Source: Octopus vulgaris (taxonomy: Eukaryota). From it: a DNA stretch of 64,000 nucleotides. Within the stretch, counting starts at the first letter, position 1; every line of letters starts with the position of its first letter. The notes under the pieces are model-generated. The model had not been told where the DNA came from. It saw only the letters and a program-made list of their open reading frames with translations, and ran no database searches. Positions 43,940 to 45,518 of this stretch are shown here, piece after piece. The position numbers and the translations under genes were made by a program. Location: positions 9,052,001-9,116,000 of the forward strand of contig OX597836.1 of NCBI GenBank assembly GCA_951406725.2, in the 5' to 3' direction.

Positions 43940-44291
43940 TGTAGGTGTGAATGTGAAGAGGGCCCTGAAGAGTATGTGAATGCGTGTGTGAGTGTTTGTG
44001 CGCTCGCGCACGTGTGTGTTTGTGTGTACATGAATGTCAAAATGTATGTTTATCTGTGTTACTGTCTCTGTTTGAATGTGTGTGTGTGTGTATATGTATA
44101 CATATGTATATATATGTTATAAATATATTAAGTGTATATGTTCACATTAAATGTATATATGCATGTATATACATACATATATTGTATATAAATATATGTG
44201 TATGTATGTATGTATGTATGTATGTATGTATGTATGTATGTATGTATGTATGGTAAATGAAAGACGGAAGATGGAATATACGAGAATTTAT

Positions 44292-44407
44292 TATTAATCA
44301 CGACAATTGTTTCGACACATCTAGCTTCGATCCCTCACGGATGAAACGCTTAACAACTGGTTCAGGAGCACCCGGCGGTGCAGATGTGTCTCATCAGGTG
44401 ATAAATA
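44292..44407 (-). ncRNA. Type I hammerhead ribozyme, intact core
   Basis: Minus: tatttatcac [CTGATGA] GACACATCT ..59 nt.. AGATGTGTC [GAAA] CAATTG [TC] gtgattaata. Stem I 9/10 pairs, stem II 9 bp, palindromic stem III ACAATTGT, GUC site with predicted cut between 44302 and 44301. Confidence 0.85.
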
Positions 44408-44560
44408 GACACAGATCGTTAAAATAACAGTTCCGCAATGTGTCTTCTCATTTCGTAGAAAGAAAAGCAGCAAAAGGAAGGGAAATATCTTCATTAATAT
44501 AGAAGATCAAAGATAAAATCACAGATCCCAAAAAGAAACGAACACGCAATATATATATAT

Positions 44561-45064
44561 TATTTCAGATTACCCTTTGATATTATTAATTATTGATAAA
44601 GTTTTTCCTGGATAATTTTTGAAATGAAAAAGCCGGCATATTTATTTACTGCCGACAGGGAGCTGCGCTTGCGCAGTAGATTTGAAAAATTAGAATGTAT
44701 AAGCACGGGGCATATACTGGATTGCCTTGTGTATATATATTTGATCTAAGGTGTACCTGCTGAAGAAGGCTTCGCCTAGCAAATTATTTTATTTGCTAAA
44801 AAAAGTCTGAAACCATTGGTCCAGGAGTTAGATGGTAAATGTTTTTATTTTTCGTTCCGTTCGAAATTTTATCCCTAACAGTGGTTTGGAATTTAACTGT
44901 CCTCTCTAGCGTGCATGTAGTCCTATGATGGATACCTTTTATGTGTTTAAATGTACACTGTATTTATATGAATAATATATAGTCTATTGACTAAAATAAT
45001 TACACGCTAGGCCACTGGTAAAGGAAATTTCTTATATTTCAGATTATCCTTTGATATTATTAAT
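44561..45064 (+). mobile_element. Non-coding ribozyme-bearing element (retrozyme / Penelope-like), 474-nt unit with 30-nt terminal direct repeat
   Basis: tatttcagatta(c/t)cctttgatattattaat at 44561-44590 and 45035-45064 (29/30 identical); internal HHR; microsatellite flanks. Confidence 0.7.
44744..44833 (+). ncRNA. Type I hammerhead ribozyme, intact core
   Basis: atctaa-ggtgta-cctg [CTGAAGA] AGGCTT cgcc TAGCAAAT tatttt ATTTGCTA aaaa AAGTCT [GAAA] CCATTGG [TC] cagg-ag-ttagat. Bipartite stem I with internal loop; predicted cut after 44821. Confidence 0.85.
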
Positions 45065-45120
45065 CATATATATATACACACACACACACACACGCACACA
45101 CACACACACACACACATACG

Positions 45121-45518
45121 AAGGCGGCGAGCTGGCAGAATCGTTAGCACGCCGGGCGAAGTGCTTAGCGGTATTTCGTCTGTCTTTACGTTCTGAGTTC
45201 AAATTCCGCCGAGGTCGACTTTGCCTTTCATCCTTTTGGAGTCGATTAAGTAAATACCAGTTACGCACTGGGGTCGATATAATCGACTTAATCCGTTTGT
45301 CTGTCCTTGTTTGTCCTCTCTGTGTTTAGCCCCTTGTGGGTAGTAAAGAAATAGGTATTTCGTCTGTCTTTACGTTCTGAGTTCAAATTCCGCCGAGGTT
45401 GACTTTGCCTTTCATCCTTTCGGGGTTGATAAATTAAGCACCAGTTGCGTACTGGGGTCGATCTAATCGACTGGTCCCTTCCCCCAAAATTTCGAGCCTT
45501 GTGCCCAGAGTGAAAAGA
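45121..45518 (+). mobile_element. SINE B dimer
   Basis: Full unit plus a unit starting 'gtatttcgtc' after 'aaagaaatag'. Confidence 0.9.

Follow-up and report, generated by a model that had tools for sequence, protein, structure and literature searches.

A 474-nt repeat in the genome of Octopus vulgaris likely represents a new family of non-LTR retrozymes that has the octopus as its host; retrozymes are an already known class, and the 474-nt family is new. The copy analysed here, which lies in a stretch of 64,000 nt (the window, whose numbering is used below), spans 1.07 units, and we consider it reasonably likely that it was made when a hammerhead-cut RNA, likely circular, was put into a (TA)n tract by a borrowed Penelope enzyme. 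As the earlier note had reported, the stretch 44561-44590 recurs at 45035-45064 with 29/30 identical positions (31/33 on extension), and repeat analysis returns the same 474-nt period. The repeat is not due to chance, since many other genomic copies cross the unit joint and share the end point. The sole ATG-initiated open reading frame of at least 40 aa within the unit is 41 aa long, and a type I hammerhead lies mid-unit at 44756-44825; the note had described a central hammerhead and no ORF. The features of the locus are as follows.

44253..44549, minus strand: decayed Penelope-like element of a different family, reduced to a 5'-truncated 3' end and placed head to head with the unit
44549..44560, no strand: short (TA)n at the 5' junction, seen in the sequence
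44561..45034, plus strand: full unit of the retrozyme family (unit positions 1-474), from the period and the family search
44756..44825, plus strand: type I hammerhead motif with a long helix II and a short, near-palindromic helix III, from core and stems
44965..44972, plus strand: fixed 3' site B (unit ~409), putative second start of reverse transcription, from the family ends
44970..45067, plus strand: 98-nt segment between B and A, likely the equivalent of the Penelope 'tail', by analogy with the available text of PMC11167929
45035..45067, plus strand: start of a second turn (unit 1-33), ending at fixed 3' site A, from the alignment and the family ends
45066..45116, no strand: target microsatellite directly after site A, (AT)n and then (AC)n, seen in the sequence

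The window copy used site A and not site B. Because the 3' ends of the family are fixed and the length of the overlap is set by the point at which the cDNA stopped, the 30-nt overlap is incidental; its length is no constant of the family, and direct pieces run from ~50 to 911 nt. The copy lies 3.6% from the family's column majority, the family median being 6.2%, and with this median of about 6% the family is apparently aged. The whole unit is more self-paired than shuffled sequences (z = -4.4). Downstream, at 45120-45500 (+), lies a short repeat that is abundant and contains a 119-nt stretch twice, at a spacing of 184; it is probably a SINE, and similar sequence flanks many of the sampled loci.

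A DNA search of the 2.8-Gb genome gave 78 matches (40 scored of 3113 candidates). The 5' part of the hammerhead occurs exactly 120 times and unit positions 320-339 occur 312 times, with no occurrence of the reversed controls; because exact motifs are this frequent and the controls are empty, we estimate the family at several hundred copies at least. We mapped 188 loci and dropped 16 as a repeated place or segmental duplicate, leaving 172 loci with 266 pieces of at least 50 nt, a non-random sample made of the 30 best-scoring loci and of loci picked mostly by exact motifs (L135 was additionally left out of the end-pairing, arm-comparison and arm-length tests). The copies are head-to-tail turns of one 474-nt unit, apparently without an LTR/PBS/PPT layout. 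Copies longer than one unit, which the note had anticipated, make up 54/266 pieces, and two whole hammerheads are present in 8/266 (the window copy has one). These are partial dimers only: the longest piece measures 911 nt, or 1.9 units, and the tandem multimers that had also been anticipated did not appear, with no array of three units found.

A loose hammerhead pattern found 267 motifs, distributed over several sister families among the 100 listed. The sister families are 65-80% identical to the unit, lack open reading frames, are close to it in period (in one of them the majority of copies measure 453-458 nt) and terminate at the same two 3' sites. We count at least four sister hammerhead families (L189, L232-L255 and L256-L275 among their loci), with two hammerheads at L261. 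Further hammerhead motifs, unrelated to these, lie at L062:5930 (-), L070:1421 (+), L039:449 (+) and L272:3502 (+), some of them in inverted pairs.

In the window unit the hammerhead core lies at 44760 and its GAAA at 44809, with a predicted cut after 44821 (unit position 261). In isolation, the hammerhead-type fold of the motif comes to -16.3 kcal/mol, within 0.2 of the minimum of -16.5, and a slightly wider stretch folds differently and is not more stable than shuffles (z -1.1). Rfam detected no hammerhead in the window unit at either threshold, because helix II is long. All 11 core letters are kept in 18/27 copies that had been sampled by another motif. The search behind the 132 distinct motifs demanded the core together with stem III's closing pair. 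Across these motifs the families preserve the stems while the base pairs in them change, and helix III reads as a perfect or near palindrome; hammerheads with this type of helix III are said to cleave as dimers (PMC4209133, in its available part). The unit RNA is predicted to cut itself at the hammerhead, although the motif does not guarantee activity, as eight of nine Xenopus retrozyme dimers failed to cleave in vitro according to the accessible text of bioRxiv 10.64898/2026.07.22.740005. The fold of the whole unit had also hinted at a helix splinting both cut ends, which we rejected because it formed in 0/40 circular folds of natural units.

The ends of the copies follow a pattern. Site A (unit 18-40 of the next turn, with a mode of 33) holds the 3' end of 105 of the 266 pieces, site B (unit 404-426) that of 99, and 62 terminate elsewhere, so that 204 end at one of two sites 98 nt apart; alignments at site B that extend to 421 reflect a chance match with the TA repeat that follows. 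The 5' ends are scattered across the unit. Random circular permutation, a feature of retrozymes cited in the earlier note, is not supported: only the 5' ends vary, the 3' ends being fixed at two sites. TA-type repeats follow 145/212 of the A and B ends, counted in slightly wider end bins, vs 1170/5130 random flank positions. This enrichment, the hammerhead and the 41-aa maximum for open frames uphold the note's description of an ORF-less, retrozyme-type family that favours (TA)n.

Many copies are two-armed. In 46 of 78 head-to-head pairs both outer ends lie at A or B, and in the other 32 at least one end lies elsewhere. The 46 pairs comprise 45 of A with B, one of B with B and none of A with A (p 6.5e-13 vs independent choice), which by analogy suggests a match to Penelope-type priming on both DNA strands. 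In the available parts of PMC11167929, an anole Penelope-like protein, predicted to act as a dimer, acts on AT-rich DNA in vitro by cutting and extending each of the two strands and starts at two sites within its RNA, the spacing of which gives the tail; Penelope-like elements at large show tandem and inverted copies, tails and a (TA)n bias (PMC8557442, likewise in part). Two fixed 3' sites, variable 5' truncation, inverted arms and a (TA)n target are all found in the octopus family, and Penelope-type copying is well supported.

By sequence, with one hammerhead per unit, a short non-coding unit and some two-hammerhead loci, the family resembles the metazoan non-LTR retrozymes described in the available text of PMC7229834 (coral, mussel, axolotl) and of bioRxiv 10.64898/2026.07.22.740005 (vertebrates). 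It shares with them a non-coding unit of a few hundred nt with low GC, a single type I hammerhead with a weak helix III, dispersed monomers with rare dimers, a self-paired RNA and co-occurring Penelope-like elements, from which, together with repeat homology, mobilisation of animal retrozymes by Penelope has been proposed in both of these sources. The length of 474 nt exceeds the 150-450 range of the former and falls inside the 51-972 of the latter. Unlike these retrozymes, the octopus family is without long tandem arrays, and its putative RNA circle is proposed from genomic copies, whereas circular RNA was demonstrated for the metazoan ones. In Xenopus, 24/57 retrozyme families match known elements, mostly Penelope terminal repeats; for the octopus unit we found no such match. 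Two fixed starts, A+B pairing and the sharing of variants within a copy are not described for metazoan retrozymes in those portions of the literature. Our literature search found no paper on octopus or cephalopod retrozymes, although the supplements of PMC7229834 and of the preprint may list cephalopods; the words 'octopus' and 'cephalopod' are absent from PMC7761336, and 'ribozyme' is absent from PMC8967140.

With endonuclease-bearing Penelope-like elements (available parts of PMC11167929, PMC8557442 and PMC4209133) the family has in common partial tandem, inverted and 5'-truncated copies, AT-rich or (TA)n targets, a hammerhead in the repeat and two starts of reverse transcription. It differs from them in lacking an open reading frame and in the spacing of its starts, 98 nt vs a tail of 30-40 bp, and the 30-nt overlap of the window is not a Penelope tail in the sense of those texts. 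Non-autonomous elements of Chlamys such as MRC1 are also non-coding Penelope dependants with head-to-tail copies, according to what is accessible of PMC8557442; their 3' ends are similar to those of the autonomous elements on which they depend, whereas no partner matched the octopus unit, and Chlamys is without canonical hammerheads, whereas the octopus unit has one.

Based on this analysis we can present a proposal for how the copies arise. A locus with two hammerheads would be transcribed and cut at both to give an RNA of unit length, a role that the five loci found with two exact cores in a genome-wide exact-motif search could serve, and the ends of this RNA would be ligated into a circle, as in described retrozymes. 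A Penelope protein would then nick both strands of a TA tract, one cDNA being primed at A and one at B, as the fixed ends and the A+B rule indicate. Each cDNA would run for a variable distance, and in many copies it visibly ran past the ribozyme site and beyond one turn; two cDNAs would then join head to head, or a single cDNA would join the target, and both outcomes are present in the sample. In the window, one cDNA begun at A would have completed one turn and 33 nt more before it ended in AT-rich sequence, leaving the 30-nt overlap. More tentatively, and with some doubt, we suggest that a Penelope dimer on one RNA circle starts two cDNAs at once, at A and B, so that the A+B rule and the shared rare variants would record rolling reverse transcription of a circle, and that the window itself may be a mixed event.

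The left neighbour of the window copy bears on this last suggestion. It carries its own type I hammerhead at 44298-44401, and we take it to be Penelope-like from clade motifs, a 62-aa piece of it giving no Pfam hit. Its family comprises at least 150 endonuclease copies, the longest open frame among them being 275 aa, and has two 3' ends ~78 nt apart, of which the window neighbour shows the shorter. Neighbour and unit are joined head to head across ~9 nt of TA, and the joint would obey the A+B rule, but a mixed joint between the 3' ends of a unit and a Penelope-like element was seen only in the window among 262 pieces, and both families target TA tracts. If the event was indeed mixed, a retrozyme arm from A was joined to an arm of its carrier Penelope, and the joint would name the mobiliser.

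The template was probably circular, as the genomic copies indirectly indicate, and the reading to be weighed most closely against it keeps Penelope mobilisation and makes the template linear: an uncut dimer transcript, or a series of template jumps, with the hammerhead trimming ends or riding along as a passenger. Had the template been a linear monomer released by cuts at both hammerheads, arms could reach at most ~246 nt from A and ~148 nt from B. These limits are exceeded by 64/104 A arms and 68/96 B arms in a sample enriched for long copies, and by 12/35 and 19/43 in a subset chosen by a downstream motif. A sample of 86 pieces on C1-C5 carries the downstream motif (90 places were listed and one of them omitted). 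Of its 63 cDNAs long enough to arrive at the cut site, 50 continue beyond it, and most templates must therefore have been ligated or uncut. The 5' ends nevertheless fall at unit 256-270 in 13/63 cases vs 32/377 in six flanking bins (p 0.002, for a bin set after the 5'-end histogram had been seen), which favours a linear template and likely means that a minority of templates were cut or that the enzyme pauses at the cut site; the neighbouring bin 241-255 is nearly without 5' ends (1/50). Two passes within one piece agree at 169/192 subfamily columns (114 expected) and have rare variants in common at 17/184 (3.1 expected), in 14 loci, with L001 and the sister-family locus L189 left out. Likewise, the arms of 64 pairs agree at 237/290 subfamily columns (171 expected) and have 35/316 rare variants in common (5 expected). 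Mosaic copies also occur, L114 having passes that differ at 5 subfamily columns and ~7/64 arm pairs agreeing no better than chance, so templates can differ within one event, another point on the side of a linear template. An uncut linear dimer with identical halves would also yield shared variants and read-through, such dimers or template jumping may give copies of this kind, and arrays of more than two units might be expected from a circle, whereas no piece is longer than two units. In vitro, moreover, the anole element's main substrate is unprocessed RNA and ribozyme cleavage is dispensable (PMC11167929, available part). Linear copying, however, only shortens its source, yet at 14 loci both passes carry rare variants that differ from locus to locus, which calls for repeated double-pass copying; a circle best accounts for more-than-unit copies that arose repeatedly, with private variants in both passes. 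Genome-wide, 5 places have a pair of exact cores with a spacing of 457-487 nt, none consecutive and 734-911 nt long, and the same genome-wide exact-motif search found neither a long source array nor a three-unit array. Shared rare variants, read-through at the cut site and the missing three-unit array together favour the circular template, which has also been proposed for more-than-unit copies in the accessible text of PMC4209133, and we regard the linear one as rather unlikely.

We consider it very unlikely that an ORF-bearing Penelope-like element has the unit as its pseudo-LTR, the copies of the unit being 5'-truncated stumps and the 30-nt repeat a classical tail, even though Penelope elements are known for hammerheads, tails, inverted arms and (TA)n targets and autonomous RT and GIY-YIG elements with hammerhead-like repeats and optional tails occur in the genome (781-aa RT+GIY-YIG proteins, 456-bp repeats, TA targets). 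Where a copy extends upstream beyond one turn, it continues as unit sequence, to 911 nt at most, and never as an open reading frame. An adjoining RT/GIY-YIG frame, which the earlier note had suggested looking for in longer copies, was not found continuous with the unit in 233 loci, which thus do not show the single RT and GIY-YIG frame between pseudo-LTRs of an autonomous Penelope-like element: Penelope protein matches occur at 7 distinct places, where a microsatellite, other DNA or an inverted arm lies between them and the unit. The note's other candidate, a solo Penelope pseudo-LTR, is unlikely because the sequence beyond site A returns to the unit and not to an open reading frame. For partners we scored 150/6136 GIY-YIG candidates (loci for 30) and 150/5624 candidates of the neighbour's family (loci for 25); the unit gave no match to the terminal repeats of the autonomous Penelope families so sampled, and 12 wider Penelope loci and the neighbour's family show no homology to it. 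That none of the autonomous elements sampled carries a terminal repeat homologous to the unit also speaks against the proposed borrowing of a Penelope enzyme. Least probable, to the point of being remote, is that the copies were made at the DNA level, by local recombination or by rolling-circle DNA transposition, or that the 30-nt repeat is a target-site duplication. Rolling-circle DNA elements also show fixed 3' ends with variable 5' ends, which is the resemblance in its favour. Against it, conserved ribozyme stems and the two-armed A+B rule fit RNA-templated priming on both strands, and 5' ends at the ribozyme cut site are a mark made at the RNA level; the target-site duplication, a plain form of which the note had raised, is largely refuted, the 30-nt repeat being element sequence common to many loci.

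Among the Penelope-like elements of the genome, L061:430-5672 (G000:C16) and its relatives form a young family in which many of the 781-aa RT+GIY-YIG frames are intact; it also has a frame of 359 aa that lies apart, upstream, and gives no Pfam hit, an optional tail of ~38 nt and a hammerhead-like motif whose core begins with U instead of C.

The family adds evidence at the level of insertions, namely two starts that nearly always pair and a single template copied in two passes, and supplies exact positions for the question of a circular or linear template. Its biological impact is probably small, because the class is known and the family looks aged.

On the RNA side, the data were assembled contigs of putative RNA runs. 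A 479-nt contig (X11) that covers the unit once with ~30 nt of overlap was, together with pieces from X2 and X9 that have the same 24 gaps, first read as a circle with A-to-I editing. L302 (G000:C10), a 1.3-unit copy with one hammerhead, a period of 449 and the overlap present twice, matches 34/35 of the listed contig differences (in a deletion-based search that gave one locus). The looped contig thus corresponds to a linear locus whose genomic sequence already has the A>G differences, and we gave up both the circle and the editing. Contigs of X1, X3, X14 and X17 have in common with the two-hammerhead locus L020 short pieces only, with no joint at the cut site, although contigs cannot show a circle. 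L302:1266-1862 is covered by contigs of three putative RNA runs from three studies under two organism labels, and the L302 contigs may belong to a host transcript by read-through. Finally, record 9 of X14, a 265-nt contig at a depth of 87, aligns with a sister family over a stretch that begins ahead of the hammerhead and reaches site B.
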